From Cyanophora paradoxa CCMP329 (Eukaryota; Plantae; Glaucophyta): a DNA stretch of 56,212 nucleotides. The notes under the pieces are model-generated. The model saw only the letters and a program-made list of their open reading frames with translations, was not told the origin of the DNA and made no database searches. Where the stretch lies: the NCBI GenBank assembly GCA_004431415.1, contig QPMI01000620.1, positions 1-56,212 of the forward strand, written 5' to 3'. Made by a program: the position numbers and the translations under genes. Of the stretch, positions 4,101-43,140 are shown piece by piece; positions within the stretch are counted from its first letter, which is position 1; each line of letters begins with the position of its first letter.

Positions 4101-4680
4101 GGTCCCGGCGAGGATGTTTTAGGAGGTTTTATACGTCCCAGTAGACCTTAGCAACCTTCCCGTAGCGTACCAGCAGCAGGCGAGCAGGCTGTCACGTTGC
4201 AAGAGAAAGCTGCTAATCACAGACTACTGTGTACCCTAGGACACGGCTACCGGAAAGTATCAAGCTAGAGTCAGAAAAAGTAGCTAGGGTCGCATCTTCG
4301 TACAGGGGTACAGTGACTCAGGAAATCGCGAGAAGCCGCGGGTCAAGTCACGGTACTACTGCGAACGAAGTGCAAACGAAGCACTAACGGCTAGGAAACC
4401 CTATCGGCAACAATGCATGCAATCACGATCATGATGCATGACGTCGACCACTCGCACGCGTACGCCCCGCGCGGCTCTAGGTCTAGGCCTGATCATGACG
4501 CGCCCTATTCGTGAAATTAAATGCCCCCATAGGCCCGGTACCGATATATATATGATAGCGATCGCCATATATAGCTCTATAAAGCTAGCTTCGTGTCATG
4601 TGCCGGCTTCGCTGACATGATCATGATCATTGTTATAATTGATATTATATTAACTCTGTCGCGTGCATGCGCTTGCGCAG

Positions 4681-5518: not shown

Positions 5519-5760
5519 TTCTTACATAACTGCCCGGGGGCCGGGGCCGGGGCCGGCACGTTTGAATTCAAATTCGTAGCCCCGGAATTAACATTAATGG
5601 CAATCATGCTGATATGCATTGAATCGCCCATGCGCGCAGCATTGTGGCGTTCACCTTCCGCCGGAGCGACACTGGCCGTGACCATGGCAAGGCGCCCCCG
5701 GCCCCGGCGGCGAACCCCTACGGCTACAAGCAGCCCCCCGCCACCGCGCCCCCCGTCCAG

Positions 5761-5882
5761 GTCACCAAGTGCGTCCGCATGCCCTTGAGAATTTAAATTT
5801 AGACGTCGACGACGAGTCCCATGGCAACGAACGAGCTACTAGTTACTAAATATTGGCGATTTTCGCGCAGCGTGGTGGTCGC
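5761..5882 (+). repeat. Dispersed repeat family A, copy 1 (copy 2 at 9127-9298)
   Basis: Shared aagtgcgtccgcatgcccttgaga...gacgacgagtcccat...ggcaacgaacgag...ttggcgatttt..gcgcagcgtggtggtcgc. Confidence 0.85.
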
Positions 5883-6710
5883 TCCTCCGCCCGCTGGCCA
5901 GGGTCAAATGCTCAGCAACTCGTATTAATCGCCGGGGCACAGCCCCGCCAACTGCGCTCATGATTACTGAGTCAACAAATGCAATCTAGATCAAGATCTT
6001 GAGTTCAAATGCAACTAGCTATAGCTACAGGTCAAGAGTACGAAATAGAATTCACGATGACAAACGAGACCTCTAGATCTGGCTTTTTACGAACTTGTCT
6101 GTCGTCATTTATTCGTATACTTCCTCTTTCATTCAATATACTAGTGGCCCGGCCGCGATTGTCGCGCCGGGGGTGCAAGGGGGGAGCCGGGATCTAATGA
6201 AAGAGTCGTAGTGGGACGCACATGCGTGCGGCAGATCGACTCCGGCCCAGTGCGCGCAGCAGGTTGAAGTGTAAAGATAAACACAGATTATGATTGGAAA
6301 AAATGAAGAGGCCCGATTAGGACACGCTGCGATCAAACCGAATATATGAAAGATTGGTCTGGAGCCAAAAAACGCTGAGCATCAACTGTGTTCGCACGGC
6401 CTACCGCTAACCCTGAACAGCTGGCTAAAAGATGATGGTGCTGTCTGCAGAGGGCTCGCCGTAAACATAGGCGATCCAGGCCTTCTGGAGGGGGTCGGGG
6501 CGGAAGTCGACCATGGGGGTGAGCGGCAGCCAGCGGCGCCGGTCCTGAAGAGAGCCGTCTTGCAAGAGCATGGTGAGGCGGCCCGCCGCCTCGAGCGCCC
6601 GCAGAGCGGCGCGGCTAGCGCTGGCGCTCTGCTCGCTCCCGCCGCGCATCTGGTAGACAAGGTCTTGAGTCGCGATCGGCTGCGTCGGCCCACGGCGCCG
6701 GCCCACGCCG

Positions 6711-6975
6711 GCAGGCGTCAAGGGGCAGGCGTCAAGGCGAGAGAAAACTGGACTTCACCCTCAAAAACCGCTTTTTGCATGAACGGCCGCAGCAGGCTGC
6801 AGCCACGACGGCCGCGAAGCAGCTGCAGCACGCGGCGCTCGAGGAGGAGCTAGCTATAGGCGGTATGCGCCACGCCAGCCCACGGGCTGCGTCGGCTGCG
6901 CCGCACGGCGTTAACGCGCGGCAGGCGTCAAGGCGAGAGAAAACTGGTCTTCGCCCTCGAAAACCGCTTTTTGCA
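6711..6975 (+). repeat. Local direct duplication (~55 bp, 6725-6779 and 6920-6974), probable TE remnant
   Basis: gcaggcgtcaaggcgagagaaaactgg.cttc.ccctc.aaaaccgctttttgca occurs twice. Confidence 0.75.
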
Positions 6976-7306
6976 CGGACGGCCCCAGCGACATACACGT
7001 GGCGCAACCCAATTTCCACTCATTTTTTCCCGCGTTGCATACTGGACCTCGAAAACGGCCTCATAGAAGAATTTTGGCTGAAGCGAGGGAACGGGAAGCA
7101 AGCTGGGAGAAGACCTTCGGTCTTCTTCCCCCCTTGCAATAATTGATTACTGTATTGCAAAGCAGGGAGATTACGCTAGAAGCTTAATTATAAGCTTGCA
7201 GCTTGATGAAGGAGAATTCGAGGACCCGCGAGCAGGTGACGGACTCGGAGGGGGACTCGGAAATGGAGCCCGAATCCTTCGAATTCCGGGAATTTCCGGC
7301 CACTGC

Positions 7307-7642
7307 ACCGCCCTTGGTAGTGGTAGAGCGCCGCACTCTCCACTCTTGAGTCTTGAGCCTCTGGGTTCGAATCCAGGCCGGCCGAAGCAATCCCGCTTCG
7401 AATCCCAGTGTGGTCGTTGGCGGGTTTGATGGTAACCCAACGCTGGGCGGATCCCACAGCCGCACGCACTGGACCCGAAAGGCTGAAGGTGGGGGCGGTC
7501 CTGTGCGCTCCCATAAGCCCGCATAGAGAGAAGGCTGTGCGAGGACGGGTAATCGCCCCATGGCCAGTACGGCCCGGCCCGAGACTCGGGCGGGAGCTCG
7601 AGTCGGGCCGAGAACCCCCAAGGGGAGCAAATTGGTTTTAAT
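7307..7642 (+). mobile_element. tRNA-derived SINE-like element flanked by 14-bp direct repeats (candidate TSD)
   Basis: A-box-like TGGTAGTGGTAGAGC (~7315) and B-box GGTTCGAATCC (~7364), degenerate cloverleaf, ~250-nt body, T/A-rich end; tttccggccactgc at 7293-7306 and 7643-7656. Confidence 0.6.
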
Positions 7643-7878
7643 TTTCCGGCCACTGCGGTGCCGCATGCGCAGAGGCGGCGTGCCGCTGCACTGCCGCACT
7701 GCCGCATGCGCAGAGGCGGCGTGCCGCATGCGCAGAGGAGGTTTTAATTTTTCGGCGCCACTGCGGTGCCGCATGCGCATCATCAGCAGCGCATGCGGCG
7801 CCGGCCGGGGCCCGGGGCCGGCCTCCCTCCTGAACCGTCGGATCCGGAGTCCGGACTCCTGGACCAGCGCTAGCTATA

Positions 7879-8102
7879 CTGTAGGCGTAGTTAAATTGCC
7901 GTGGAGTAAATTTGCCGAATTCGGCCAAAACCGGAATTGCCGTGGCGATAAATTGCCGAATCCAGCGCTCTGCACTATGGCGGGCTTAGAAACTACCGTA
8001 GTACCTACCCCCCAAGCAATTGCCGTGGTGCTAAATTGCCGAATTCGGCCTCTCGGCAATATACGGCAATTATTTACCACGGCTAAAAAACTACGCCTAC
8101 AG
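7879..8102. mobile_element. MITE (~224 bp) with terminal inverted repeats
   Basis: ctgtaggcgtagtt (7879-7892) and its exact reverse complement aactacgcctacag (8089-8102), extendable imperfectly to ~30 bp; internal aattgccg repeats; TA on the left flank. Confidence 0.8.
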
Positions 8103-8400
8103 CAGGCTATAGCTGCAGCCTGCAGGAGATCGCCGCCGGCGCCGGCCGCGGCGCCGAATCAGAGACCTCGCGATCGAGAGGCTCTGACTCTCACAGCTAG
8201 GCTGTTTCGAATCTTTCGATTCTTTCGATGTGAAGAATTCATTTCGAATTGTTTTTGAAGCAAACGATCAAAAGTAAGTGTACGACGAGTCGTCGACGAC
8301 CCGTTGACGCGTACGACTAGCCTGCACTGCAAGCCTGCAACACTAGTACTGCAGCGGCAGTGCAGCCTGTGGGAGGCTGTGGCACCTGTGCAGGGAGTGC

Positions 8401-8645
8401 CAGGGACTGATAACTACGGCCGTAAGTCGTAAGTCCTCTCTCGGGGCACGTAACTTGTGACGTAAGTCGTAAGTCGGAGTCTGTCGGACTTCCACTTACG
8501 GACTTACACGTAAGTCCCGTAAGTCGTAACTTCTCGTAATTATAAGTACACTAGTGGCAAGTTGGCAACACTGGCAAGTTGGCAGAAGTTGCACTGGCAA
8601 GTGGCAAGTAGTGACACTGTAGTGTCACTGACTCACTGGCAACCC
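8401..8645. repeat. Clusters of short motifs (cgtaagt, then tggcaag), typical of DNA-transposon subterminal arrays
   Basis: Repeated cgtaagtcgtaagt/acttacg at 8420-8540 after CAGGG; repeated tggcaag/tggcaa at 8555-8642. Confidence 0.5.
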
Positions 8646-8713
8646 AGCCGTTACCCAGGCCAACCCTATGATGGTCTGGACTCTGGCCATGGGGTGGCGA
8701 TTCACTCAGTGAC

Positions 8714-8885
8714 TGGCGAACTGATTTTTCGGGATGTTGTTTTCTTTGTTCGTGTTTGAGCGTCAGCAAATTGGAAGATGTGACGTTCGCGGCCCCATTT
8801 GTATTCTTATCGACGGTTCGTTGTACACGTCGGACGGGTAAGACCGAGAGTCGAGACTCGAGAACTTTTTCTGTTTTGTTTTGCC
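8714..8885 (+). repeat. Dispersed repeat family B, copy 1 (copy 2 at 10241-10416)
   Basis: Shared tggcgaactgatttttcgggatgttgttt...ttggaagatgtgacgttcgcggccccatt...ggtaagaccgagagtcgaga...ctgttttgttttgc. Confidence 0.85.
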
Positions 8886-9126
8886 CAGGATGAGGGTACG
8901 GAATTCTTCGGTCGACGTGTGCTGCGCTTCACGCTGCGGCGGCTGCGCATGCGCTGCCTGCGCAGCGCTAGCCTAGCTACGGCGCCCGGCGGCCCTTCGC
9001 TAGCGCCTGTGAATCATTGAATATCGATGCGCATGCATCCCTCGGATACAGCGTAACACTCCGCACGCATCGTACAAGCGCTAGCCCGGCGCGGCGCTCA
9101 TATAATTAAATGATCAGCGGCTGAGG

Positions 9127-9298
9127 GTCACCATGGCCAAGCTTAAGTGCGTCCGCATGCCCTTGAGATCTAGAATTAATATTCAGACGCCGACGACGAG
9201 TCCCATCATCAGGACTCCCATGGCAACGAACGAGCTCGAGTTACTATATTACTAAATATATATTGCAATTGGCGATTTTTGCGCAGCGTGGTGGTCGC
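9127..9298 (+). repeat. Dispersed repeat family A, copy 2 (expanded by micro-insertions)
   Basis: Aligns to 5761-5882 with several 6-nt palindrome-forming insertions. Confidence 0.85.
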
Positions 9299-10240
9299 GA
9301 TCGCGGCTGTACATGTCACCTTCCGGATAGCGCTAGCGGATGCATAGTGCCATCCCTAGACGCCGTTGACCTCGTTAAAACGTTAAACGTTAGCGCGGGT
9401 ACCGGTGGTTTCGTTCAGATTTCGTTGTTTATCTGGAGGTTCGATATCGATGACAGAAGATCATTTTTAGGTCGATCCACGTCAAGCTTCAGATGGAAAA
9501 AGCTCAAAGGGCGGCACGCTCCCAGCAGGGTTTTGTATGGGACTGAGAGAACCTCAGTCGGCCAATTTGGTGACTCAGTCGGGTCAGTGAGACCCTCTGA
9601 CTGTGACTGTGAGTGACTGAGGGGCCAGGGGCCAGGGCGGGCCTGGGCCGGGCGGCCAGGGCCTCAATGCCGCCTAGGGCTGTGGTCGCTGGTTGTCGCT
9701 TCGCTCGCGAGGTTCCAGCGGCCGCTACGCTTGGCGTTTTCCGCCAGCGACGCCTCCTCGCTCAGCGTTTTTTATGGCTGACAGGCGCCAAAAAAAGCTC
9801 CATCCCGCTTTTTTCTCATCTGATGGTCGACGTAGGTCGGCGACGACTCGGCGTGGCCGAGCAATCTTGCTAAATTTCGACTGTTTTCGAGCATCCAGGC
9901 GCTCCGCTTCGCCTAAAAGCAGCCTGCAGCTGGCCTCTATCCCGCAGAAATTGATGCATGGCTCGCGGAACCAAGCATTAAATCTGCATTTGCGTCTTAA
10001 AAGCTTGTACGAAATAAACTACTAGTAAACGGAACAGATAGGTTTTCGGTCGGTTTCCAGCAGTTTTTCTTCAGGTTTTGGCGGTACCCCCAGCTCAGCG
10101 ACGGGCCAGCGACAGGCGCCGCTCGCCGGGCTTCAGCGGCCGCTGGGCCCGGCCCCCCCCAGCGAGCAGCGCCGAGCACAGCTCTAATGCCGCCTCATGC
10201 TGCTCTGAGCGACAGTCTCAGCGACTGCACTTAATTTCTG

Positions 10241-10416
10241 GGGTGGCGAACTGATTTTTCGGGATGTTGTTTCTTAGTTCGTGCGAGAACGTCAGCGAAT
10301 TGGAAGATGTGACGTTCGCGGCCCCATTAATATTTGCATTCTATCGACGGTTCGCTCAAACTTCGTTGTCGGACCGGTAAGACCGAGAGTCGAGAACTTT
10401 TTCTGTTTTGTTTTGC
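10241..10416 (+). repeat. Dispersed repeat family B, copy 2
   Basis: Aligns to 8714-8885. Confidence 0.85.
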
Positions 10417-10818
10417 TGGGATGGGGGTACAAAACTTCTTCGTGGCTACAACGTGGCGTGCATGTGCTTGCGGGGAATCGCCGGGGATCGCGCGGATGCG
10501 CATGCATCCCTCGGTTGCAGTGGAACACTCGGGAACATCGGAACCATCAGCGGCTGAGGAGCCTGAGGTCCGACTGTGGTGCTCCTAGTCCTAGCTATAG
10601 GCCTGCAACAGCAACATCCTGCACCGGTCAGCGGCAGAGCGAAGTGAACGCGCCGCGCGCCGGCGCAGCTCGAAGCCTTCGAAATCAGGCTTAAAAGCTT
10701 TCAGGAGCGCGCGCGTGTTCGCCGACCCCGCGGCCGCCCAGCGCGGCCATGCTTGAGGCATCGAGATCCCGCCCCGCCGGCATGCGCAGCACGAGAATTC
10801 GAAGCTAGGCCGGCCGAG

Positions 10819-13800
10819 ATGCAGGCGGTGCTGCGAAGGCGCGGCAGCGTCCCGGATGCGCTCGGCGAGGCGGGCCGGGGGTCCGCACGAGTCCACCCCG
10901 CGGCCGCGCGCGGCTCGGACGAGTCTGAGGAGGCGCTCGCGGCGCGTCGGGGTTCGAGACCCGCTGTGTTCTTCAGCGGGCGGCCGGCGGACGTCTCAGT
11001 GCAGCTGGCGCACGGGAGCGGCGACCCTCCGAGCGCCGGCGAGAGCTCGCATCAGCAGCAGCAGCACCTTCGGGAAGCGATCGAGAACAGCTTGCGGCCG
11101 ACCGGCCGCCTCCGGCTGCGCTTTCGGGACGCGGCGGCCGAGGCGCGGTTCGAGAAGGCGTACGCCGACGCGGGGCGCGCGCGGGTCCGCATCCTCCACA
11201 CCATCGCATCCATCAGCACGTTCGGGGACCGTGCGCGATGGATGGATCCCCGCCTTCGCTCGGGGAGCCGCTGAGCAGCCATTGATTCCGAACCGTTTCG
11301 CGCGCGCGCGCGCAGTGCTCGTCCCCTTGGTGGGCGGATCGGAGATCGCCGGCGCCTCGGCGCCCGGGGCCCGCGCGCCGGTCTCCATAGCCCTCCGCCT
11401 CGGCATCTTCGCCATCTGCTTCGCCCTCGCGCTCTTCTCGTGGACGGAGCGATGCCGGCGGCTCCCGCCGCGCCGCTTCTTCGCGGTGTACACGTGGGGG
11501 CCGGTCGCCGCGTACGCCCTCTTCTGCGTCCGCCGGGCCGCCGTCGTCTACCACGACGCGGGGGTGAGCGCACGCTCCCACGCCCGCCCACCCGCGCGCG
11601 CGCGCCTGCCCGCGGCCGTCCGCCCCCCTCGACTGACCGGGCGATTCGATGGTCGGTGAATCGATCGGTAACGCTTGCAGAGCTACGTTTACTGTGCGTT
11701 ACTACGTTTACTCATCTCGTTCATGATCAGGATTGCGGCACTGATTTAGACTGCGACCGCCGCTTCGAATCCGACGCAGACGACTTCTTTGCGGCGGCGG
11801 TCGCAATCGCGCTGTTCCTGTTCTGCCACATACCCCTCAAGTTCTCGACCGCCCTAGTACCCTACCTCGTATCCATGAGGCGCGCCCTTGCTTATTTACA
11901 CAATGCCGCCGGTCGAAGGACGTAGGGCCTGGACTCCTGTCGAAGCCCCTCTGAGCTTATCCCGCCCCACAGCATCGCGACGGAGCTGGTCGGAGCGTGG
12001 ACGACGCCCTCGCAGGCGCCCTCCAAGCTCCTCATCGCCGGGGCCTTCCAGGCCGTCCTGGGCACCACGACAGTCCTCGTCATCACCGCCGGTGCGCCCG
12101 CTTCGTTAAGTACTTGCCGTTGGTCGAGCTCGAGCTCTCGGGGCGGGGCAGGGGTGCGGTACGAGCTGGAGGCGCGGCGGAGCTTCCTGCAGACGGAGGC
12201 GGTGGAGCGGGCGCGGGAGGAGGCGGTCGCCCGCCAGCGCTCCGCCGTCGCCCTCCTCCGCACCCTCCTCCCGGACCCCGTCCGCCCCGCCCCGCCCCGC
12301 CCGGCCCCGTCCCGCCCGGCCCCGCCGAGCCGACGAGGGGCGGGCCAGGTGATCGAGGCGGTGCACCGGGACGAGTGGGGCCGCATCAACCGCCTCCACG
12401 CCAGCGCCACCGTCGTCTTCGTCTCCGCCGCCGGCGTGGCGGGGGCCGGGGCGGAGCTCGAGGGCGGCGGGGCGCGGGGGGCGCTGGCGGGGATGCGGGC
12501 GCTGATGGCGGCGCTGGAGGCGCTGGCGGAGCGGCACGGCGTCCTCAAGATCAAGTCCATCGGCTCCACCTTCATGGCTCGCCCCCGTCCCCGCCCCGGC
12601 CCCCCGCACGGCCGGCCTCTCACGCCGCCCCCCGCAGGGCGTCAGCGGCATTGCGTTCGACGCGGACGAGGAGGACGAGGTGGAGGAGGAGGAAGAGAGC
12701 CCGCGGGGTATGCGGCCGCGGCTTGGCTCGGGGTACGGGGCGGGGGACGGGCGCGTGCGGGGCCGCTGGCTGCGGCGGGGCGAGGGCGAGGGCGGGGCGC
12801 GGGTGCACCACACGGAGGCGGCGGCGGCCTTTGCGCTCGACGCGGTCGACGCCGCCCGGGCCCTCGCCTTCTCCATCAAGGCCGGCCTCTTCGAGTGCGC
12901 CCGCGACCGCCGCCGCTGCCGCCGGCGCCGGCGCGGCCTCACGACGCCGCCGGCGCAGGGCCCGCTGGTGAGCGGCGTGATCGGCTGCCGCCTCGCCTTC
13001 GACGTCTTCGGCGACGCGTGCGCCCCGCCCGCCCCGGCACGCTGCCCCGCCGCGCCGCTGACCCCTCCCGCCCCGCAGCTGCAACCTCGCGCAGCGGTGC
13101 CCCGCCCCGCGCAGCCCCCCACCGCCCGCCTCCGCCGCCCTGACCGACGCGGGGCGGCAGGATGTGCCTGCACGGGGTCGAGGGCCGCGTGCAGCTGCCG
13201 ACGGCGGCTCGGGACGCGCTGCAGGCGGCCGCCGAGCTGCGCGCCGCCGCCGACCCCGCGGGAGCCCCCGGCGCCCCCGCCTTCGCCTTCTCCCCGCCCC
13301 GCATCGTCCTCGTCAAGGGCCGCGGGCCGATCTCGTCCTGCCTCCTCGAGAGGGGCCGGCCGGGCGCATCCTCCCCAACCAAGGCGCCCGCTCGCGTCCA
13401 CGCGGTCCTGAGCGAAGCGGAGGACCCTTCGCCCGTGACCGCGAAGGGAACGTTCGCCGAGAGCCCGCCGCCCAAGGCCCGCGACCCTTCGCCGCCGCAG
13501 TTCTCCGCCTCGTGCCGCACGCGCCGCGCGAGCAACAGCGCCGCCAGCGACAGCACGGCGGGTAAACCTTCCCCCGCCCCGCCCTTCCGCCCGCAGCGGC
13601 CTCCTTCTGATACCCGACGCCAGGGGTACTCCGCTCTGTGGACGACGGGCCGGACTTTTCCCCCTTCGCGCACCTCAGGCGCGCCCAGCGTACCCCCCTG
13701 ACCAGCCTCTGTCTCCTGATTGCGACGCCCGCCCTCTACCCCCGCAGGATGGGCCTGGACATGCCCGCCGCCCCCTCAGGCCACCCCAGCGAGTCGCCGG

Positions 13801-14703
13801 AGGGGTCGGCGCCCACCACGCGGCGCTCGTCCGGCGCGTCCAGCACTTCCCGGCGCGGCGCGCGGGGCCCCGCCGGCCCCGCGTACCTCCCCTCCGCCTC
13901 CCTCATCTCCCGCCTCCCGACCTTCCCGCGGGCCGATCCCGACCCTCAGGCTCCGGAGGCCGGGCCGGGAGGGGGGCCCCGCACGCCCCGGACGCCCTTC
14001 CGCCACTCCCGCAGCGCCCGCGTCGCGCCGGCCGCCCTGCTCCCAAGAGACGCCACCGCCCCGGGGGGCTCGAGCCCGGACGCCTCGCCCCCCCGCCACG
14101 CTGCCCCGATCTCCCCCCCCTGGTCGCCCTCCCCTTTCCTCGTCCTGGCGGGCCGCCGCCCCTCCGTCGCTAGCCTCGGCCAGCCCCCCTCGCCCCTTTC
14201 GCCCTTCGTCTCCAGTCCCCCTGCCCGCCCGCGGGTGCCTCCGCCCCCGCGCCCGCTCCGCCCCCGTCCGCCCGCCCACTTTCGCCGCAGTCGTTCTTCA
14301 GCTGGAAGCGGAGCGCCCGGGTGCCGATCCAGAGACCCGACAAGAGGAGACGCTCGCACCGCTGGTGGCAGCTGCGATACCTCGATCCCGAGGACGAGAC
14401 TGCGTGCGCCGCTTGTACCCTCCGCAAGTCCCGTACCCCCGCGAGCGACGTGTACCCCCCAGTTATTGGGAGGCGTCGGCTCCGAGCCTCAAGATGGGCC
14501 TCCGGCAGCTGGTTCAGTGGGCTTTTCTGCACACTCTCATCTTTCCGGTACCCTCTTCCGTCCCATGTACCGTACCCCCTCCCTTTCTAATCCATACCCC
14601 GCGCAGATTGCGAAGCTGATGGCGAACAACACGGTTACCAACAAGCTCGTGGAGCGGTGCATACCCCGCCCCACACCCGTTCGCCTTTCCGTGCCCGACT
14701 AAC

Positions 14704-14736
<33 letters not shown>

Positions 14737-16793: not shown

Positions 16794-17642
16794 TTTCAAC
16801 AGATCTAGATAGAACTGTTTATGTAGCGGCCATCCTTTCAAAATCAGTTTAATTTGCGACTCGTCGAGTCCGTTTCGGGCCTCGCGCTGCGTTTGCAGTG
16901 CTAGTGTTCTTTGCAGTCTTCGGCCCATGCGATGGCCATGGCGCCGGCCCTCACACAGTCTACTTGCAATTGGGTACCTTCTTTTGTATGTACGTCTAGA
17001 TGCATATGGCGGTCCTTATATACTGGTTCGAATTCTCAGCATCACCTGTACACTTGCTTTAATTCTCATGCGAAGAGCCTTCAATTAATTGCGCGATGCA
17101 TCTGCTTGTTGATACCGATAAGCGCCTCGAAATCTTAAGCTTCAATGTGTGCGTGTACTTGAACTCGTTGCTGTTTTTGATGCGATCCGATGCATTGGAA
17201 ATGCATGACAGTCAATCGATATCGCCGAGTCGGCGTGCTTTCGAATTCTTTCGCAGTGCCATCATGTACCGCAGTACATATACATGTACGTTAAATTATA
17301 TAAACAAATGCATGATTTATGATTAAATTGATTATAAATTACCCAGCAATCCAGAACGGGGCACAACATTTCGCGATCGCTCGCGATCGGGGGGTACCGG
17401 TCGCTCGCTCGCTCGCTCGCTCGTCGCTCGCTCAATAGTTGGCGGATGCTGGCCCCCGCGCCCCTGGCCATGGCCCGGCCCGCGGCCCCCGGGCCCCGCG
17501 CACGGGGCCCGAGGAGATAGCCCGCCCCCGCGGCGCGGCCGGCCCCGCGGCGGGTACACGTAGACACCGCAGCCGCCCTTAGGATGACGCTCTAGATCTA
17601 AATATCGATATCTATGCGTCTGAACTGCGTGGCTAGAGCCTT

Positions 17643-19252
17643 CTAGGAACTGGGGACCTCCTTGCCCTGCAAGGCGGCGAGTCGGGCCAAGACCTGCGGT
17701 CGACATCGCCCGTGGGGCGTCAGACCGGGCGCGGGGATTAAGGGATGGATGGATGTGGGCGGCGCCGGCGCGCCTGCGGGGGGTGCGTCGCGGCGCGGAC
17801 CTGCACGCGGGCGCGGGGATGCGGTCAGAGGGGGCCGGAGCTCAGCTAACACGAAAGATGAAGCTCCTAGCTGAGCTACTATCTGGAACTTTTCCGGCAG
17901 GGATCTTCTCCGCAACTAGCGCTCAAGCCCGCTTATATTTTTGAATCGAATTCGAAAGGGCGCACGTTCTCGAAGCGCTCGCGGACGACGCCCTCGGGGT
18001 CGATGAGGAACGTGTTGCGCGCCGAGCCCGACCCGAACTTGAAGTCAAGCCTGGGGGTACGCGGTTTCAGGGGATGGAGGGGGGGAGGGGGGCGGGTGGG
18101 GGTGAGTTCGGGGGCACCAGGAGCCGTAGAGCCGTGAGACGGCGCCCCTCTGCGTGAACGGAAGGGGGGGTAAGGGGAACGAAGGTTCAGAATGAGGAGA
18201 GGAAGGTGGGGGTACAACGCCAACGTGAGGAGGGTGGGGGTGGGGAGGGTGGGGGGGGGAGCACCGGTTCTGCGTCGGAGAGGAGCGGGAACCGGAGGCC
18301 GTACTCGTCACAGAAACCTGAAGGGGGCGGGGGGGGGGGGGGGGGGGTAAGGGAAGCCGGAGTACAGGAAGGACCGATGGCGGGGGTACGGCCGCGGCGC
18401 ACCGTTGTGGGACTCGACAGTGTCGGCGGAGACGCCGACGACCTCCGCGTTCAGATCGTGGAACTGCTGCAGCGTCTCTGCGGGATCCGGAGGCGATCGG
18501 ATTGCTCAGGTTCGGGACTCAGGTGAGCGGGGGCGGGCGAGGGCGGGTTCGCGCGCGCCCTGGAACCGCCGCGCTTCGATGGTGCAGCCACTCGTGAAGT
18601 CGGCCGCTGCGTAGCGGCTCAGGTGAGTCCTCTTGAGGAGCGCCACGACGCCGGGGCGGATCAGATTCGGCGCGGCACACGCACGGTAGAAGTAGAGAAC
18701 GACCCAGGACTTGCCCTTGTAGTCGGAGAGCGTCACGGTTCCGTCCAGGCCTGCCGCGAGCGATTTAGCGGACGCGCGTCGTGGGCCGGGGGCGAACAGG
18801 CGGTCCGCGGCCGACTGGGCCGTGCGCGCGCGCGCGCGCGCCGCACCAGAGAGCGTAAAGTCGGGCGCCGGGGATCCGACCTCTGGTAGCTGCGCCCGCA
18901 TGCATATCGTTAGCTAGCGCGCATACGCCCCATCGCCTGTGCCCGCGCTCGCGCTCGCGCGGCGGCACGTGCGTACCTTCGTCGAGGTCGGGGCGGGCGC
19001 CGCCCGGGCAGGGGACGCCCCGGCGAGGCCCGCGGCGGTGAGCGCGAGGATTGCCGCCCTCCGCGAGACCGTTGCGGGTGCCGGCTGCCGGCTGGGGCCC
19101 GCGGACGACGACGCGAGGAACTGCGGCGTGCCCGCCGCGCGCTGGCCGGCCCGGGCGGGCGCCTGGAGATGCTTACGCTTTGCAGGCACCGGCGTGCCGG
19201 CGAACGCCGACGTGGACGAGCGGAGCGCCGGGACTGGCGCGACGAACATCAT
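17643..19252 (-). CDS. PRXQ: Peroxiredoxin Q / BCP, plastid-targeted with Tat-type lumen signal (multi-exon)
   Basis: LPEVGSPAPDFTL, LSDYKGKSWVVLYFY, DFTSGCTIEA, VVGVSADTVESH, FCDEYGLRFPLLSD, RNTFLIDPEGVVR; N-terminal MMFVAP..SAFAG transit peptide and VSRRAAILALTAAGLAGASPARA. Confidence 0.88.
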
Positions 19253-19301
19253 TTTGTGTATCCCGTCTTGGCTGCCTTCAGGTACTAGTGCCTTTTCAGC
19301 A
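19253..19301. promoter_or_regulatory. 49-bp head-to-head spacer between the PrxQ and carboxypeptidase start codons (bidirectional promoter/overlapping 5' UTRs)
   Basis: CAT ending at 19252 and ATG at 19302, both followed by plausible targeting peptides. Confidence 0.5.
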
Positions 19302-22300
19302 ATGCGCGGCCGGCTTCTGGTCCTCGCCGCGGCGCTGGTCTTGCTCTCCACAGCGGCGGCGCTGCGCGGCGAGTCCGCGCAGCGCCCGCTGGGCCCCGTG
19401 CCCTTCGCACCGGTCAAGCAGCATGGACAGGGCGCGCCCAAGCAGGAGCCCGGCGAGGCGCACCGCGTGCTACAGATCCCCGGCCTGGATCCGAAGGTGC
19501 GCTGGGCGCCCCGGCCCGAAAGCGCCGGCGCGCGCGGTTGTGTGCACGCAGCGAGCCAGCTCTTCCACGGCGCTCATACGTGCCATGAATACAGATGTTA
19601 AGCATCCAAACAGAGCGATTCGCCTTTGTTGAACGCGTCGCGCGCAGGCCCTCGGCCCCAGCTACGCCGGCTTCGTTCCGGTCCGATCCTTGCCGCGCCG
19701 CGCTTGCACTCGCGCGGCGCAGCAGACCAACTCTGACGCAGATCAACGCGACGGGGGCGGCGGACGGGGAGCCGGGAATGATGTTCTACTGGTTCGCATC
19801 CCTTCACTTAACTTGGATCCGGAATTTGATCCGAGCCGCCCGGCCGACGATGCTCGCGCCCCGATCGACGCGCGCTCCGCGCAGGCTCTTCGAGGCGGAG
19901 AAGGACGCCGAGAGCGCCCCGCTCGTGCTGTGGCTCTCCGGCGGGCCCGGCTGCTCGTCCACATTCGCCCTCCTCTTCGTGCGCGAAAGCGAATCAGAGC
20001 CCCCCGGATTCGAACCCATGACGCCCGATCCGCGTGCGCAGGAGAACGGCCCCTTCACCATCGACCGCGAGGGGACGCTGGAGACGAACCCGTTCTCGTG
20101 GCACAAGGTGGGCGTACCCCCCCTCCCGCAGCCACCCGCCCGTACCCCCCGTGACGCCCCGGCAGGTCGCGAACGTCCTCTGGGTGGACCAGCCCCTGGG
20201 TACCGGCTTCAGCTACGTCTCGGATCCGAAGGGGTATACCCGCGACGAGAGGACAATCGGTGGGCGTACCCCGCTTCATCTCTGCGCCCCTCTGGCGCCG
20301 ACGCCGTGCCCTCCGCAGCCGAGGATCTGTACTGGTTTATGCAGGGCTTCTTCGCGCTGCACCCCCGCTTCTACCCCCTCCCCTTCTACATTTTCGGCGA
20401 GAGCTACGCCGGGCACTACGGTACCCCCGCGCTCTAGGTCTCCGTGGCCGGTACCCCTCCTCGCCCGACCTCCCCCGCAGTCCCCGCGTTCGCGGCGCGG
20501 ATCCTGACGGCGGGGGCGGCGGGCATGGGGCCGTACCCCCCGAACCTCAAGGGCATCGGCATCGGCAACGGCATGACCGATCCGGTCGTCCAGGTACCCC
20601 CCTCCCTCCCCCCCCCCGCGCCCGTTTTCCGCTCCCTGACTCCGCTCCCTGCAGTACGGACAGTACTCGAAGGTGGGTGGGAGCGTGCGGGGCGGCGGCG
20701 CCCACGGCTGCAGAAAGATGCTTTAGAGGCTTTTACAGCCCGGCGGAGACCGATACCCCGATCGGGGGCTAACCCCGACCCCCGGCCCCGCCCCGCCACC
20801 CCCCCGCCCCGCCACGCCCCGCCCCGCCCCGCCCCGCTCTGCTCGGCTGCTGACCGACCCCGGCCCTCAGTTCGCGTACGCGCACGGCCTCATCGACGCC
20901 AACGCCGTCGCCCAGGCGAGCCCCGCCCCCGCCCCCGCCCCCGTCCCCCGTCCCCAGACTCCACGCTCCCCCGTCCTCCACGCCTCTAGATCTCTAGATC
21001 TAGATCTTCGAGCTCAAGTTTCAAGTCCTGTTGATTTCGACTCCTCGCCGAGCGCGCTGCTGACCGCGCGGGGCGGGGCGCGCGGGGTGGCGGCAGGCGG
21101 ACGCGAAGCACGCGGAGTGCGCGGCGGCCCGCGAGGCCGGCCAGCCCGTGCGCGTACCCCCCCTCCTACCCCCCTCCTCCTCCTCCCCCCCTCTTCTCCT
21201 CTCATCCTCCCCCCCTCCCCCCGGCAGCCCGGGGCGCTCTTCTCGCTCTGCAACGAGGTCTTCGGCGTCGTCCTCGCCGCCGCCGGGCCCGTCAACGTGC
21301 GCGTGCTAAAAGAGGCTGCGATCCGATGCGACAGAGAGACGCTAGCGCGTCGTCAGCGCAAGGGCTGAATGCTTGTACCTTCTTCGCGCGCGCGTTCGAG
21401 TGCTCAGGTGTACGACGTGCGGGACAGCTGCGTGACGCAGGGCGGCAGCTGCTACCAGACCCCGCAGGCCGCCGCCTGGCTCGCCGTGCGCCCCTCGGAT
21501 CGCATCCGATCAGATCTGATGTGATCCGATCGCTTCGTTCGCAGCGGGAGGACGTGCAGGAGGCGCTCCACGTGATCGCCCCCGGCCAGGCGAGCGTTCG
21601 CCCCGCCCCGCCAGCCCCCCCGCGCCCATACCCCCCTCCTCTCTCTACTCCCCACCCCTCCCCCAAATCTGCGCGCGAAGCTCCCTTCGCGCTTTTGCAG
21701 TGATTTCACCGCCGCTCGCCTGGCGCAGGCGACGCGGAAGTGGGAGATGTGCGACATGCGCGTCTACGAGAAGCTGCGGGGCGACTGGTGCGCCCCTAGG
21801 CCTGCGCGGGCGCCCTCTGCACCCCCCTTCCCCTTCCCCCCTTCCTTCGGAACCCCTGTGGCCTCGCCTCCGCCGACCCTGGCCATGGCTCCGCAGGTTT
21901 GTCCCGCAGAAGTTTGCGATCCCCCTCCTCCTCGAGCACTACAAGGTACCCCCCTCCTCCGCCCACCCCCCCCCGCCCGCGCGACGGTACCCCGCAGGTT
22001 CTCGTCTACGCGGGCGACATGGACCTGATCTGCAACCACATGGGCCAGAGCGCTTGGTGCTGTCCCCCCTAGGAGCTGTACCCCCCTTGGGGTACGGGAT
22101 TGAGGGGCGGTTTCCGTGCAGGCTCCAGCAAATGGAATGGACCGGGCGCCCCGGCTTCCTCGCCGCCCCCGTGCGCCCCCTTGAATCAGATCAGACCTGA
22201 TCTGATCTGATCTGATCTGATCTGAGCTGCCGGCGGCTTGGCGGCCCGCAGAGGCGCCTGTGGGCCCTGGGGGACGCCCTGGCGGGGTACGCGCACTCCT

Positions 22301-22660
22301 CGGGGCCCCTCACGTACCTCGTGCGCCGTACCCCTCCCCTCGTCCTCCTCCCCGTTTCGGCCGACGCGTACCCCGGCAGGTCGTGCGGAACGCCGGCCAT
22401 ATGGGTTCGCCGCCCCGCCCCGGCCCTCGAGATCAGATCAGATCTGATCTGATCTGATCTGATGTGAGCAGTGCCTATGGACCAACCAAGGGCGGCCCTG
22501 GGTGCGCGCCAATCCCCTCCTCTCGAAGAAGCCCGGATCATATAAAGTGGGCCTCTGCCTCAGACCCACCATAACGTTGACCGTCGCCCCCGCAGAGATG
22601 CTGCGGCTCTTCGTCACGGACGCCGAGATCGGTTCGGCGTCGGCGTCCCAACCAAATTAG
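19302..22660 (+). CDS. Serine carboxypeptidase, family S10, secreted/vacuolar (multi-exon)
   Basis: Signal peptide MRGRLLVLAAALVLLSTAAA; PLVLWLSGGPGCSS, ENGPF, NPFSW, NVLWVDQPLGTGFSY, GESYAGHY (Ser), GIGIGNGMTDP, VYAGDMDLICN (Asp), RNAGHM|VPMDQP (His). Confidence 0.93.
22186..22463. repeat. Intronic (GATCA)n/(GATCT)n pentanucleotide microsatellites, self-complementary
   Basis: atcagatcagacctgatctgatctgatct... at 22186-22223 and gatcagatcagatctgatctgatct... at 22431-22463. Confidence 0.8.
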
Positions 22661-23492
22661 TCGGCTATATATAGATCGGTCGTATCTACACGTTCCTATG
22701 TACACAAATGTGCACGCTCTGCTGCTGCTGCTGTCCCTTCGAAATTCGAATCCGCGAACCCCGCTTCGCGAGCCGCCTCCGAGCTCCGAGGCTCTGTTCC
22801 AAGTTTGTACACGGGGTTGAAGAGGTATATATATAATCCCCAACGTTAACGTTAATTATATAACCGCGTCTCCTATACAGTGAGCGGTCGACGTCTCTTT
22901 TTTTTAAGCCCTGGCCTGGGGGAGGCCCTTTAATATCCCGGTCGGGCGCGGGTCCCTTCGTCGCCCGGCGGCCGTGCGGCTGCTGCAATGAGCACGAGGC
23001 GTTCCCGCTCGAGCTCTCAGTCGATCAAGGGCCGGGCCCTGCCGCCGCGCACGCGCGCTACCCGGGTCGACCGAAGGGGAGGGTTACCCATATCGACATC
23101 GCTTTCCTTTTTAAGCTTTAAGCTTGGCAATCAAAACAGCAAGAGAAACATCGAGAAGTTAGCCCGGCCGCGGCAATATTTAGTTGCACTCGCCGATCAT
23201 CGGATCGCAAATTCATGCCGGTGCACGTGCACGTGATCGATATCATATGCATGATTGATTGCATCATGGCATTCGAAATTCGCAGAAGACATTGAAACAA
23301 GAAACTGCCAGGGTTGATTGAAACTTCGTATTCATGGGTATGCTGCCATGCTGCGGGTACTGATCGGAAGCGGCGGCTGTGCAGTGCGAAGGCTAGCGGG
23401 GTAGTGTGGAGGAGAAGAGATCTACAATTGGTTAAGGTCTGTACAGCACAGCAACGCACTTACGGCTGGATTCGAAGGGGGGTACGCTATAG

Positions 23493-25997
23493 CTACGAGA
23501 CGGTGCAATGCCCGCGGCTCTTGGAGCGCGATTGGGGCGCGCGCCTCCGGATGACGGGAAGGCCATCGCCGGCGCCCCCGGGCCCTCCCGCGGAGCCTCC
23601 GGGCTGCTGCCGCCGCCCCGCGCCGGGGCCCTCGGAAGGCTCGCCGAGGCCCGAGCCCGAGCCCGACCCCGAGGCGGAGGCGGAGGCCGAGGCCGAGGCG
23701 GAGGCCCGGCGCGCACGCTCCTCCCTCCTGCGGCGGCGCGTACGATTAGTTCGGTTCGAATTTAGGTATCAATGAGAGATCGCTGATCACTGATGAATGA
23801 TCATCGTCGTTTATGTAAGATTAGATCGGATCGCGATCGGGCGCACATCCTGCGGAGGCGGGCGCAGATCTCGGGGAAGTCGGGGCGGAGGGACTGGTCC
23901 CGCTCCGTGCACTCGTCCACCAGGCGCGACAGCTCAGCTGGGCACGCCGGGTCCACCTGGGAAGGGGAGGGGGGGGGGGGGGGGGGGGAGCTCAGCTCGG
24001 CCTCGAGCGTCATTCAGCTGCGGGATGGGAGGGGGGCGGACCGGGAGGGAGGGGGGGTGGAGGCCCTTGTATGCGACCATGTGCGCCGCCTTGTCCACCG
24101 CTGCGCCCGAAAATGTAAGAGGGGGGGGGGTGGAGGGTGAGGGGGGGGGGCAAGCTCCGCACATTGGATGTCGGGGTAGGGGGGCTTTCTCGACACGACC
24201 TCCCACATGCAGACGCTGCGCGCGCGGGCGAGGGGGGGGGGAGGGGGAGGGGTACCGGGTGAGGAGAGGACGCGGGGTCGGGGGGGGGGAGGAGGAACGA
24301 TGGCGGAGCAGTGAGCATACCCCCAACTGCGAGCGCCGCGGGTCAGAGGACTCAGAGGGCGGCGGTGGGTCGGGGGTACGCGAGGCGCACCTATACACGT
24401 CACACGACCTGTGGTAGCGCTCCCCACGCAGGACCTGCATGTAGCCCCCTCTCTGAGAGCAAGCGGGCGAGAGAATCGCGTGCCGCGCACCTCGGGCGCC
24501 TCCCAGCGGTACGATCCCGTGCACGGCTGCGCTCACGACCGCCGCGTCAACAGGCGATCCCAGCGCAAGGCGATCCCAGCAAATGCTAATATCTTGATTT
24601 AGCTCAAGGTAACGCTTGCTCTAGCGTCTCAAGCGCCGCTATCCTGTGGCCATGGGCGCCGGGCGCGGGCGCGGGCGCGCGGCCATCGGGGGCGGCCAAC
24701 GGCGATCCCAGCTTGCTTGCTCGAGGCAAAAGGCGATTCTAGCCCAAGGCAAATTGAAGCTCGCTCGATCATATGAGGGCGCACGGTCATCTTGCCGTCG
24801 CGGGCCTCGTAGCGGGCGAGGCCGAAGTCGACCAGGTGCACGTCCCCCGCCTCGTCCAGCTGCAGGCGAGCGCTTGAGGGCTCCGATCCGAGGCGCGGGG
24901 GGCGGGGGCAGGGGCGGGGCGGGGGGCGGGGCGGGGCGGGGCGGGAGCGTCTAGCTGCAAGGGAGGGGCGGATCGAACGCCAAGCTTAAGGGCTCCGATC
25001 CGAGGCGCGAGGGGCGGGGCGGGGGCGGGGCGGGGGCGGGGTGGGGCGGGAGCGCCCACCAGCAGGTTCTGGCTTTTCTGGGGGCGGATCGGGCCGGGCG
25101 GCGGTCAGGGTGGCGCGCGCGGCGGCCGCGACTCGAGTTCGAATCCGCGCGCGAACGATTCGCGCACGATGTCGCGGTGCAGGATCCCGAGGGAGTGGAG
25201 GTACTCCATCGCGGAGGCGAGCTGCAGGCCGAAGCGTAGGGCGGCCTCCAGGCCCCAGCGCGGCCTCCCGGACTCGTGCAGCTCGTGCCAGAGCGTGCCG
25301 CCCTGGATCAAATCCAGGAGGATGAAGGGCTCCTCGGCCTCCATGCACGTCGCCAGCAGGCCCCTGAGAGAGCGCCCGCGCGCCCCGCGCCGCGTGAGCG
25401 CTAGGCGCCGCTAGCACGCCCGCGCGCCCTCGCGCAGCGGCCGGAGGTTGTTGGTTAGCTATAGCTATGTGTGTGTGTGCTAGACGCGCGCGCGCGAGCG
25501 GGCGGCGGTCCGGCGGGGCTTACACGATGTGCGGATGGTGTATGCGGCTGCAGGAGCGTATACATGCGTCAGGCGGAGGTTCGAGCGGCAGCGCCTAGGC
25601 CTGCCGGTCGGATATCGATCGCCGGACCTTAGGAACAGGACCTCGGTCTTCATCTCAGCGACGGCCTCCTCAAAGCCGATGTGCTTGCACCGCGCCGGCG
25701 GCTTGACGCGCTGCGCAGGAGAAGCTCCGCTCAAACTGGTTGGCGGACCTGCGCGGCATGCGTACGCACGTACGCACCTTCGCGGCAACGATCCGGCCCT
25801 TCCAACGGCACTTGAAGACCGTGGAGCCTCCGCCTGCCCGGGGGTGAGCGGGAGGAAGGCTCCGGCGGGGTCCGCGCGCGCGCGCCTTCGGAAAGCGGGG
25901 CAAGGAACTCCACTTCGGCCGGGGAGCACCTCGGGATGGGCTGCGGGGCCACCTCCCCGGGCTCGGGCCGCGGTTCCATCGCTACGTCGCTCGGCAT
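23493..25997 (-). CDS. Tyrosine-kinase-like (TKL) Ser/Thr protein kinase with C-terminal CaaX (multi-exon)
   Basis: SEG|GGSTVFKCRWKGRIVAAK, HHPHIV, MEYLHSLGILHRDI|KPENLL, VDFGLAR, GSYRWEAPE, SCDVY, MWEVVSRKPPY, LRPDFPEI; last exon ends RRRAPQSRSKSRGHCTVS*. Confidence 0.9.
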
Positions 25998-26328
25998 CGC
26001 TCTAGTCTGTGCTGCGGCTGCTACAGCAGTGCTCCCATAGCATGCTACCCCGGTATACGTATATACGTAGCCGGCACGCAAAGGAGCAACCGCAAAGTGG
26101 CGATATGGAGTCGGTTGCGGGGGACGCCGTCACGAGAGTCACGCCGACGAACCCCAACCGGCCTTTTGCGAACGAAGAGGGTTGTACCCCCAGTAAAAGA
26201 CCGTTACGAATAACCTGCTTGCCTGGCCGTCCCCGCCCCACTGCCAGCGTCCCGCCATCAGAATGGTGTTTGACATCCTTTCCCCGCGCAAGCGCTCGGC
26301 TTTCCCGGCCCAGCAGCAGCAGCCGGTG

Positions 26329-27596
26329 ATGCCTCAGGGTGCGCTGCCCGCCCGCGCCCCGGGTCCCTCGGGGACCGTCCGCCGAGCCTCTAGCCTCTGA
26401 TCGACCATTCTACGCGTCCGTTGCACGGTTCCACTGAGTCGCTGACTGGGGGCCCGCCCCGCATGCAGAGCCCGTCTACGAGTCGGTTGACGTGTGCATC
26501 AGCGGCCGCGCCTTCGTCCCGCCCGCTCCGGCGGCCCAGTCCTTCGAGCCTTACTTCCCTCATTACAACCAGCAGACGACCGCCGAGGCCCCCGCCCCCG
26601 CGTGAGCGCTCACCCGCCGATCCGGCTCGCCTCTGTCCATTGACGCTGACGGCGGCGCAGGTCGCCCTACAAGAGCCCGCGGACCCTGGCGCAGGACCCG
26701 AGCGCGCTGGCCTCGCCGGCCCGCGTGCGCTCGCCCTTCAAGGCGGAGACCGAGCCCCCGCTCCCCGTGCGCTGGCCGCCCCCAAACAAGCCTTCTCTGA
26801 GGCGACCGGGCTAGCCTGACTCGAGTCCGCGCCAGGTCGAGCCGCCGGTGACCTCGAAGCTTGGGGAGGAGCCGACGGTCCCGGCCCCGGCCCCGGCCGA
26901 GGAGGGGGAGGGGGAGCAGCCGGCCCAGCCGGAGGGCGAGGCCGCCCCCATGGACCAGGTGCTGTGGACGATCTCGTACACGATCCGATGATCCGACGCC
27001 GACGCTGAAACCGAACGGCGCGCAGGAGCCGTGCGACTGCGGCGACTGCGACAGCTCCGAGGCGGCGACCACCGAGACCGGCACCGAGGCCGCCGGCGCC
27101 GCGGGGCCGCTCTCGCCCTCCGCGGCGGACAAGGAGAACAACGCCGGCGCCGGGCCGCGGAGCATCTCGGCGCGCAACCTGCCCAACCTCCCCGAGAAGG
27201 TCTACGTGAAGCGGTCCGCAATTCCATCCGTTCCTTCTTATCGTTTCTTTCCTTTTCTCGTCTTATGTCCCGCACCAGCTTTGGCGCGGACCGCGTCTTC
27301 CACACGGACAAGAAGGCGAGCCTCCTCTTCGTGGCCCCCTTGCCTTTTTTAAGCCGCCTCCTGAGACTCGAACCCGGGGCGCAGTGCAAGCGGTTCATGC
27401 AGAAGAAGGCGAAGGAGAGCGCCATCAAGCACCACATGACGCCCTGCGGCAAGGTACCCCCCTCCTCTCCCTTTTCCTTTCCTTGCTTCGAGGGCCTCGT
27501 CTCACCCGAGGCCGCCCCCCGCAGTGCTCGGCGCACCTGGTGCCGGCCCCCAAGGCCCCCGCGGTCACCTCGCCCCTCCGCCAGCCCGCCCTGTAA
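26329..27596 (+). CDS. Hypothetical protein with a C-terminal H-C..PC-x2-C putative Zn module (multi-exon; start uncertain)
   Basis: Spliced reading EPCDCGDCDS..DKENN..EKVYVK|FGADRVFHTDKK|CKRFMQKKAKESAIKHHMTPCGK|CSAHL..; canonical short introns. Confidence 0.5.
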
Positions 27597-28039
27597 ATGA
27601 GGGCCCGGCCGGACGACAAGCTCGCCCCTAAGAAGAAAAGGCACCGAGCTCGTTATTATTCAGCTCCGATATCCTTCGAGTGTAGTCTTCGCAGCTCTTC
27701 CTCTGCAGTTTCATGCTCTGATTTGATTTCGTGGTTGCATCCACACGGCAGTACTAGCTAGGCAGGACTCTCCATGCATGTCAGCCCCGCGTCCGATGCG
27801 TGGGTGTAAATAAAGAACCACTCTTGCGTCGACGTCAGCACGCGAGCAAGACAAGCTCCAAGGGCGAGCAGCCGCCAAGGTCCGAGGGCGAGCAGCTGCT
27901 GCAGCGCGCGGGCGAGACAAGGTCCGAGGGCGAGCAGCTAGAGCTCAAGCTAGGTTGAATCGCCGCAGCTGGCATATGCATGGAAAGCGATCTCATTCGT
28001 TATTATATATAATTACAGATCTGGGCTGGCCCGCCACGC

Positions 28040-28299
28040 GCGCGGCCGGCCATGGCCGCGGGCTGACGTCGACTAGTACTAGACAGGCTTCCGGCGCGCT
28101 AGAAGGGCGGCGGGGGCTGGAGCTAGCCAGCGCTAGCTGAAGGCCCTGAGGATGGCGCCGGCGCTCGACGCGCGCACGCCCGCATATGCATGTGCACAGA
28201 GGCCTGCGCCCCGCCGGCGCCGGCGCTAGCCGGTCGGCCGTGGCCGCCGGCTGACTAGACAGGCTTCGAATTCCGGCGCGCTAGAAGGGCGGCGGGGGC
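28040..28299 (+). repeat. Local duplication (28040-28118 and 28232-28299)
   Basis: ctgac..tagacaggcttc..cggcgcgctagaagggcggcgggggc twice, differing by X-X'-X insertions. Confidence 0.85.
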
Positions 28300-40676: not shown

Positions 40677-41263
40677 TCTCTTAGGCCTCGAGCCTCGGAC
40701 CGGAGGTGCTCGGCGCCGCGGTTTTCTTACGTCGTGTTATAAAAATTATCCTCGAACACGCTCGCATGCATGCGCGCTCGGCAATGATGCCGGCGCTGCC
40801 GCCGCCGCCGCCGCTGATTCTGTCGATGGAGGGCCCGTACGCGTGGTACCGGTCCGGAGCGCGCGGCTCCGGCGCCGGCGCCGGCGCCGGCGGCGCGCCC
40901 AAGGATCGGAGGCCTAGGGGAGGAGCTCGAGGGGCTCGGGGGCGGGCCGTGGCCAGGGGCGGGCAGGGCGGCTGGGCGCGGCCGCGGGGGTTCTGGCTGC
41001 TCATCGTGTGCTCCCCTGGCCATGGCCATGGCGCCGGCCACGGCCTGCTGCTCGTCGAGCCGCTACCTGCCTCCTCCTAGGCTAGGCCCTCCAGGCTTGA
41101 ATTACATGTTTACCTGCCACAGTGCAGGGTGCAGCCTGGCAGGCTGCGCATGCGCTCGGAAAAAGAGTTCAAAAGACTCGGATCATGACACGTGTACATG
41201 TGAATACGTATACGCGGGACTCGTCGGAGGCTCGGCGGAGCCCGCGCCGGCCCCGCCCTAACC

Positions 41264-41338
41264 CACACATATGAATATTCATATTTTAATCCCTCGGCGT
41301 TCCGCCTCAGGATTAAAATATGAATATTCATATGTGTG
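41264..41338. repeat. Terminal hairpin: perfect 29-bp inverted repeat with 17-nt loop
   Basis: cacacatatgaatattcatattttaatcc (41264-41292) / ggattaaaatatgaatattcatatgtgtg (41310-41338); each arm contains the 16-bp palindrome atatgaatattcatat. Confidence 0.95.
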
Positions 41339-41339
41339 A

Positions 41340-43117: not shown

Positions 43118-43140
43118 TAAGAATACCTTAGAAAAATTAA

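Follow-up and report, generated by a model that had tools for sequence, protein, structure and literature searches.

We describe here a short insertion that recurs throughout the host DNA of contig QPMI01000620.1 of the glaucophyte Cyanophora paradoxa CCMP329 (assembly GCA_004431415.1, positions 1 to 56,212 of the forward strand; the whole 56,212-nt stretch is called the window). At each site a three-base word X has become X-X'-X, that is, the word, its reverse complement and the word again, with a net gain of six bases. This feature of the host DNA is real, strong and stereotyped, and the process behind it is uneven, being at or near background in a retroelement-like and a virus-like block of the same contig. 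We think it likely, while leaving ample room for doubt, that these sites are the scars of a cut-and-paste transposon that makes a 3-bp target duplication and leaves by flank-hairpin excision. Where we speak of the genome, we refer to this one window together with sister copies of its repeats viewed through contigs.

The most direct evidence comes from repeat copies aligned pairwise, in which we counted indels of at least 4 nt. Summed over the three pairs covered, 11 of 16 such indels are exact X-X'-X gains, alongside about 4-5, 4 and 13 substitutions in pairs 1, 2 and 3, respectively. In pair 1 (5760..5882 and 9126..9298, both on the + strand) the second copy carries six private gains, at 9131 (CCA), 9139 (AAG), 9166 (AGA), 9175 (ATT), 9232 (GAG) and 9263 (TTG), and the first copy carries one, TTT-AAA-TTT at 5792-5800. 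The latter sits where the 9126 copy has its ATT triplication, so that a shared event followed by three substitutions is the alternative. An older GAC-GTC-GAC (5802-5810 in the first copy) is common to both and has decayed to GAC-GCC-GAC in the 9126 copy, which additionally bears a 15-nt looped templated insertion and a +4 (ATAT). In pair 2 (28043..28118 and 28231..28300, + strand) all three indels are X-X'-X, the first copy having overlapping GAC (28065) and ACT (28072) triplications and the second a TTC triplication (28265), and the alignment is gapless once these are collapsed. Pair 3 (8714..8910 and 10244..10442, + strand) has one exact gain, ATT-AAT-ATT at 10326 in the second copy, one gain with a single mismatch (TGT-ACA-CGT, in the first copy), a +7 insertion in the first copy and a +11. 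The insertions that an earlier, sequence-only reading of this DNA had cited in these three pairs were all located and confirmed by the alignments.

Sister copies elsewhere in the genome were viewed via contigs of public sequencing runs (X1, X2, X4, X9 and X19), keeping indel rows with a share of at least 40%; the 12 rows inspected out of 37 were read as eight events, namely three six-base absences at window triplications, one six-base gain relative to sister copies (TA to TA-CTAG-TA, 10020-10027) and four events of other kinds. Runs X15 and X19, which may be RNA, yielded no comparison between strains in unique DNA. The six bases are missing from sister copies of GCT-AGC-GCT in a Helitron-like repeat (6614..6622, + strand), at depths of 2583/5202 in X9, 116/116 in X19, 318/4097 in X2 and 0 in X4. 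They are also missing at CCA-TGG-CCA (7558..7566, + strand) in three DNA runs, at about 58% of depth, and at GAT-ATC-GAT (9443..9451, + strand), where a family contig lacks 3+1+2 = six bases in run X4 only (depth 744). The before/after pairs and these three absences give the direction of change, which is a gain, and X occurs twice in the 11 of 16 multi-base indels and at the three sites polarised by sister copies. The earlier reading had made its claim conditional on read support, and this was obtained in part: short-read contigs (X1, X4) show zero differences from the window over 4386-6168, 8500-9542 and 10299-12169, although these are contigs rather than raw reads, the runs may be the window's own source, and the pair at 28040 lies outside the coverage.

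The 9-mers were then compared with chance by compartment. Compartments were set by hand from splice sites (one gene could be translated nearly to its end; three of the hand gene models have small frame slips and six more are approximate), simple repeats were removed and expected counts were taken from 200 shuffles. With simple repeats still in, positions 1-41000 hold 259 X-X'-X 9-mers against 33-41 in shuffles. Intergenic DNA (10,747 bp) contains 120 against 4.6 expected, with a shuffle maximum of 12 in 200, or against 6.8 when shuffled locally in 300-bp pieces; introns (9,512 bp) contain 32 against 5.1, exons (11,825 bp) 32 against 7.4, mostly within GC-rich low-complexity stretches, and unassigned DNA 20 against 4.6. 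No X-X'-X 9-mer occurs in the carboxypeptidase-like and transporter-like exons (about 2.9 kb; labels by eye). The retroelement-like block (1..4412) served as an internal negative control (3 against 2.4 expected) and the AT-rich virus-like block (41260..56212) is nearly negative as well (8 against 3.9, p about 0.04); the protein context of two of its eight matches (43834 and 45319), judged by eye, shows no sign of insertion. Youth or closed chromatin could each explain the low counts in the virus block. Outside this contig, 443 kb of viral loci, which were chance matches of a 14-base pattern and are used purely as background, gave 119 against 141 expected, and 89 metagenome loci (409 kb) retrieved with a chained-triplication pattern gave 158 against 154.5, so that no second genome with the signature was found among them. 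A repeat-derived pattern searched in metagenomes had no match. The count by compartment that the sequence-only reading proposed shows an excess in intergenic, intronic and coding host DNA, and the virus block is close to background.

The density is about 11 per kb in intergenic DNA, patchy and highest beside genes, and three high-copy repeats have the lowest values (0-5 per kb), a hot zone at 9121..9460 (11 triplications in 340 bp) the highest, 32 per kb. Two further hot zones, both intergenic, lie at 16795..17600 (15 in 806 bp) and, adjoining the virus block, at 40679..41259 (11 in 581 bp), and a cluster of seven triplication 9-mers, some of them overlapping, occupies 38037..38135 (+ strand) in a low-complexity coding stretch of a DNA polymerase X gene whose exon limits were set by hand. 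Local clustering is mild, with 11/7.8, 16/11.2, 21/20.1 and 49/38.3 observed/expected neighbours within 9, 12, 20 and 40 bp, and nested or overlapping events are slightly above random placement (10 second-round collapses against 5.1, maximum 11 in 100). After collapsing, the one-mismatch forms number 58, 84 and 67 against about 26-29 each, two to three times background, which indicates that older events are decaying in place. Collapsing 115 triplications lowers the 6-bp palindromes from 476 to 252, with 178 expected, so the proposal that triplications explain the dense short palindromes holds for about three quarters of the excess rather than for the whole. The more general claim of a pervasive, stereotyped +6-nt process is upheld by the 9-mer counts, the paired copies and the sister-copy sites alike.

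The geometry of the insertions is narrow. The word length is fixed, intergenic DNA giving 120 observed against 6.8 expected for k=3, 1 against 0.6 for k=4 and 0 against 0.0 for k=5; the k=2 version gives 91 against 52.9. An early excess at k=4-6 dropped to background after simple-repeat removal, leaving two k=6 matches. Period 6 is the peak for local duplications whose spacer is templated (81/10.4, 67/20.7 and 51/16.3, observed over expected), and templated duplications of periods 8-16 are nearly empty; an 8-bp duplication plus one base (33 against 0.6) consisted of tandem and GC-rich repeats and disappeared under maximal-run counting. All 30 testable word classes were seen, in proportion to their frequency (chi-square p 0.64), and TAA/TTA words make up 2 of 115 events with 2.2 expected. 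The flank is complementary to X in 35 and 31 of 123 sites, with about 33 expected from base composition, and this chance level implies that no prior inverted repeat is needed at the sites. The inserted bases are reverse-complementary to the flank and adjoin it with zero spacer, as in a flank-hairpin footprint. Flanks lean weakly to C/G (C at -1 0.42 against G 0.28), which is not used as evidence. Reverse and plain-complement controls are far lower, and consist mostly of tandem repeats or of the X-X'-X sites themselves read at an offset. Among side classes, the +5 class (X, two templated bases, X) after collapsing has 32 against 13.9 (standard deviation 3.8), an untemplated +5 class is not enriched (73 against 81), and neither the +4 class (48 against 40, standard deviation 6.8) nor the +7 class (3 against 1.9) is clearly enriched.

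Other small rearrangements were seen in the same DNA. Exact 7-bp tandem duplications number 11 against 0.6 in intergenic DNA (for instance at 7340-7355, 8420-8480, 23110-23125 and 37335-37355) and may be a second scar class; there are also 17 5-bp tandem duplications against 8.5 and two 8-bp ones against 0.1, the latter being the only ratio, among the 5-, 6- and 8-bp classes, above that of the 7-bp class. Longer templated insertions, in which a looped inverted copy is accompanied by a 6-bp duplication in the manner of fold-back synthesis, lie at 9197-9215, 9837-9847 and 10163-10172, and two neighbouring introns of one gene (22185-22227 and 22425-22467) share an inverted-then-direct 5-bp tandem array.

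Excision footprints of a transposon would account for the observed insertions, with their direction, length, density and spread, if a donor and the following enzymatic steps are assumed. Insertion would duplicate three target bases, giving X-element-X, and excision would seal each flank as a perfect hairpin in RAG and Transib fashion. A host nuclease would then nick the hairpins 1-4 bases beyond the tip (a range of 1-4 nt past the tip is given in PMC2175297), leaving palindromic overhangs. As both flanks end in the same X, these overhangs would be complementary and pair in a single register, and end joining would converge on X-X'-X for most opening positions. In a toy enumeration that combines a 3-bp duplication and perfect hairpins on the flanks with opening at +1 to +4, for which the weights are assumed and trimming and precise excision are ignored, X-X'-X makes up 70% of the output and the next class is +5 at 8.6%. 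Hairpin footprints are thus favoured by the constant three-base length, the absence of a spacer in the palindromes, the dispensability of any pre-existing inverted repeat and the side class at +5, a zero-spacer palindrome being the trace of an opened covalent hairpin and a constant three-base duplication that of a fixed-stagger enzyme; a transposon supplies both, in order. The earlier reading had left hairpin footprints and template switching both open; the hairpin geometry is now favoured, and simple template switching fits worse. The likeliest type of donor would be an EnSpm/CACTA (CMCT) element. The EnSpm target duplication has no fixed sequence, and a 3-bp duplication without a fixed word is also what we find. 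EnSpm elements make 3-bp duplications and have catalytic motifs in common with Transib/RAG1 (PMC12730594), flank hairpins with palindromic footprints are established for hAT, Transib, Mutator-like elements (MULE) and RAG (PMC5499845; PMC5873905; PMC2921059), and DNA transposons have been reported to prefer DNA near genes, where excision scars can shape genomes (PMC5023962).

Several points weigh against this explanation. Neither a terminal-inverted-repeat element with a 3-bp duplication nor a transposase was found within the 56-kb window, and the active element with hairpin-forming transposase that the sequence-only reading suggested looking for did not turn up there. Candidates with CA..TG ends in the window number 16 against 18-24 in shuffles and none is convincing; a scan for any terminus in 4413-10749 gave 9 against 0-3 in shuffles, all of them short or GC-rich; and a permissive inverted-repeat scan of the window returned 570 pairs, with a 224-bp miniature inverted-repeat transposable element (MITE) as the only clear element among the part inspected. 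Flank hairpins or X-X'-X footprints for EnSpm itself were not found in the literature searched. At this load, every 90 bp or so of intergenic DNA would have gone through one insertion-excision cycle, and the seven events against 4-5 substitutions in pair 1 likewise mean that turnover would be very high. Part of the +5 class could be 1-nt deletions from older X-X'-X, the +4 class lacks clear enrichment, and the toy model leaves trimming and precise excision out of account. Finally, the k=2 excess and the looped templated insertions, one of 15 nt in pair 1 and one at 9837, indicate that other inverted-copy processes also act. The feature behaves as a palindromic excision footprint and is not assignable to a named family without a donor.

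Among the alternatives, element-free break repair survives best, although we hold it to be unlikely. A nuclease (host, domesticated transposase or viral) would cut open chromatin with a 3-nt stagger, and after fill-in the ends would either be sealed as hairpins or serve an end-joining polymerase as templates in trans, before being joined as X-X'-X. This would account for the fixed length, the absent sequence preference, the patchy, gene-proximal density and the lack of a donor in the window, and the enrichment of 7-bp (11 against 0.6) and 5-bp (17 against 8.5) tandem duplications is what fill-in of staggered breaks predicts. However, it requires fill-in and then hairpin sealing at one break, two steps that transposition gives in order and for which, at the same break, we know of no enzyme; moreover, frequent plain fill-in would be expected to leave X-X as the main product. 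A hard-wired, transposon-independent pathway that turns any three open-chromatin bases into X-X'-X, at a rate locally matching point mutation, is a possibility worth keeping in mind, if not a likely one. Such a pathway would rewrite promoters, introns and protein linkers and seed most short palindromes of the genome.

Replication template switching, in which the polymerase, having copied X, would move to the opposite strand, copy back over three bases and return to the start of X, seems to us rather improbable. On paper its product is the same, FEN1/rad27 mutants are reported to yield small inverted triplications by replication error (PMC13334657), looped templated insertions are present in this DNA, and overlapping events exceed random placement. 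Nevertheless, a spread of lengths would be expected, yet k=4 and k=5 are at background; the return point must precede the first switch, a class unseen among 794 human-chimp events (PMC5453318); and the triplications described in PMC13334657 have mean lengths of 148/160/148 bp, a spacer of 30 bp and junctions of 6 bp, whereas here the spacer is zero and no inverted repeat pre-exists at the sites. Replication should also not spare the decayed, CpG-poor virus block, though this block may be young. That selection maintains the motifs as regulatory or methylation sites, or that they are a by-product of composition and simple repeats, would agree with their density near genes and with the many raw counts supplied by GC-rich words but is very improbable, being largely refuted by the paired copies, in which the motifs arise as insertions, and opposed by the equal rate across all 30 testable word classes, the persistence of the signal without simple repeats and the much lower reverse and plain-complement controls. 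A sequencing or assembly artefact, to which the use of contigs from runs that may be the window's source lends what weight it has, is hardly credible given the base-for-base identity of short-read contigs at covered unique sites, the decayed one-mismatch copies, the exons of two conserved genes without any match and the near-background adjacent blocks of the same contig.

Whatever its origin, this is a countable mutation class that locally equals or exceeds substitution (7 against 4-5 in the 120 bp of pair 1, 3 against 4 in pair 2). Extrapolated roughly from this one window to the genome's intergenic DNA, some 40 Mb (figures from PMC6704402), a density of about 11 per kb would amount to several hundred thousand intact scars. 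They would affect alignment, indel models and searches for motifs in this genome, and because +6 preserves the reading frame, the insertions can lengthen protein linkers. If they are transposon footprints, the scars would record past insertions that left no element, show in vivo how hairpins are opened and ends joined in a glaucophyte, and be an argument for RAG-like flank hairpins in a transposase that makes 3-bp duplications; if no donor exists, they would point to an undescribed repair pathway.

Up to about 41250 the window is GC-rich, intron-dense eukaryotic DNA, in line with the high GC and many short introns of this species (PMC6704402), and AT-rich virus-like DNA follows. Among the introns of the hand-set gene models, the GC-AG type is common (20916, 21590, 35915 and 39349). 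The first 91 residues encoded by a peroxiredoxin gene (18980-19252, - strand) are 100% identical to EukProt tig00021373_g21073.t1, a protein whose naming style also fits this species (PMC6704402), and the protein has at its N-terminus the phenylalanine that is characteristic of cyanelle precursors (PMC2222254). The DNA polymerase X family gene (37405-40678, about 20 introns), which adjoins the virus block, has a Pfam PF14792 match and a weak match to polymerase lambda, and protein searches with its intron-containing frames gave no match; an end-joining polymerase is a candidate for the fill-in step, and its location here is probably chance. The virus-like insertion (41260-56212) encodes an S-adenosylmethionine decarboxylase, two C1q-domain proteins, a tail-fibre-like repeat protein and a patatin/F5-8 protein. 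Its CpG content is 0.28 of expected, its right end is disrupted by stops and frame changes, and its left end carries a hairpin of 75 bp (41264-41338) and a direct repeat of 338 bp whose copies are 82% alike; 55701-56033 had no usable match in the Atlas. Repeats and viral insertions in this species are reported to be methylated (PMC12344493).

As for other elements, the retroelement-like block (1-4412, - strand) shows CCHC knuckles by eye and a multi-copy right end and has no informative Pfam match. The MITE (7879-8102, 224 bp) has perfect 14-bp terminal inverted repeats and very high contig depth, and its sister copies are preceded by TA, a target from which we take it to be, likely, of Tc1/mariner type. 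TA-CTAG-TA at 10020-10027, the only 8-mer of its kind in intergenic DNA, would fit as the scar of an element that, like this MITE, targets TA and has CT..AG ends. The high-copy repeat at 6140-7147 (- strand), with a TC start after A and a GC-rich hairpin then CTAG before T, is presumably Helitron-like by the end rule of that family. A tRNA-like stretch (7310-7385) with A- and B-box-like motifs, broken by a 7-bp duplication and not called by ARAGORN or Rfam, is possibly the head of a short interspersed nuclear element or a tRNA pseudogene. Rfam and tRNA scans found nothing in the window, and one further scan gave a single chance match.

We found no published description of the X-X'-X signature in a literature search with little coverage of subscription journals, and the main text of the Cyanophora genome paper has no mention of palindromes (PMC6704402). 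The direct-inverted-direct arrangement recalls the small inverted triplications of FEN1/rad27 and origin-dependent inverted-repeat amplification, but those have arms of about 150 bp, a spacer and junction homology (PMC13334657), whereas here the arms are 3 bp, about fifty times shorter than in the FEN1/rad27 events, with neither spacer nor junction homology. The four-point short template switches of Loytynoja and Goldman similarly make a local inverted copy of neighbouring bases; the order needed here (4 before 1) is unseen in the human data presented, and lengths vary there (PMC5453318). Flank-templated palindromic bases between two target copies are shared with hAT elements (Ac/Ds, Hermes), Transib, the MULE Muta1 and V(D)J coding joints, in which hairpins are opened 1-4 nt past the tip and joining is guided by microhomology (PMC5873905; PMC5499845; PMC2921059; PMC2175297). 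Unlike Ac/Ds, which has an 8-bp duplication, a one-base-centred palindrome and varied footprints, we see 3 bp, even palindromes and one dominant product, and the templated classes of period 8-9 are nearly empty in intergenic DNA, so an Ac/Ds-type hAT footprint was rejected. Ac/Ds in Candida added three bases in 3 of 128 footprints, whereas here +6 dominates at about 11 per kb of non-coding DNA, and Muta1 differs in that its excision is >90% precise. PIF/Harbinger targets are biased to TAA/TTA, and the 2 of 115 such events here (2.2 expected) rule out an element of that kind. With respect to EnSpm/CACTA (CMCT), flank-hairpin chemistry and X-X'-X footprints are absent from the literature searched, but the likeness lies in the 3-bp target duplication, which we infer here from the footprints.

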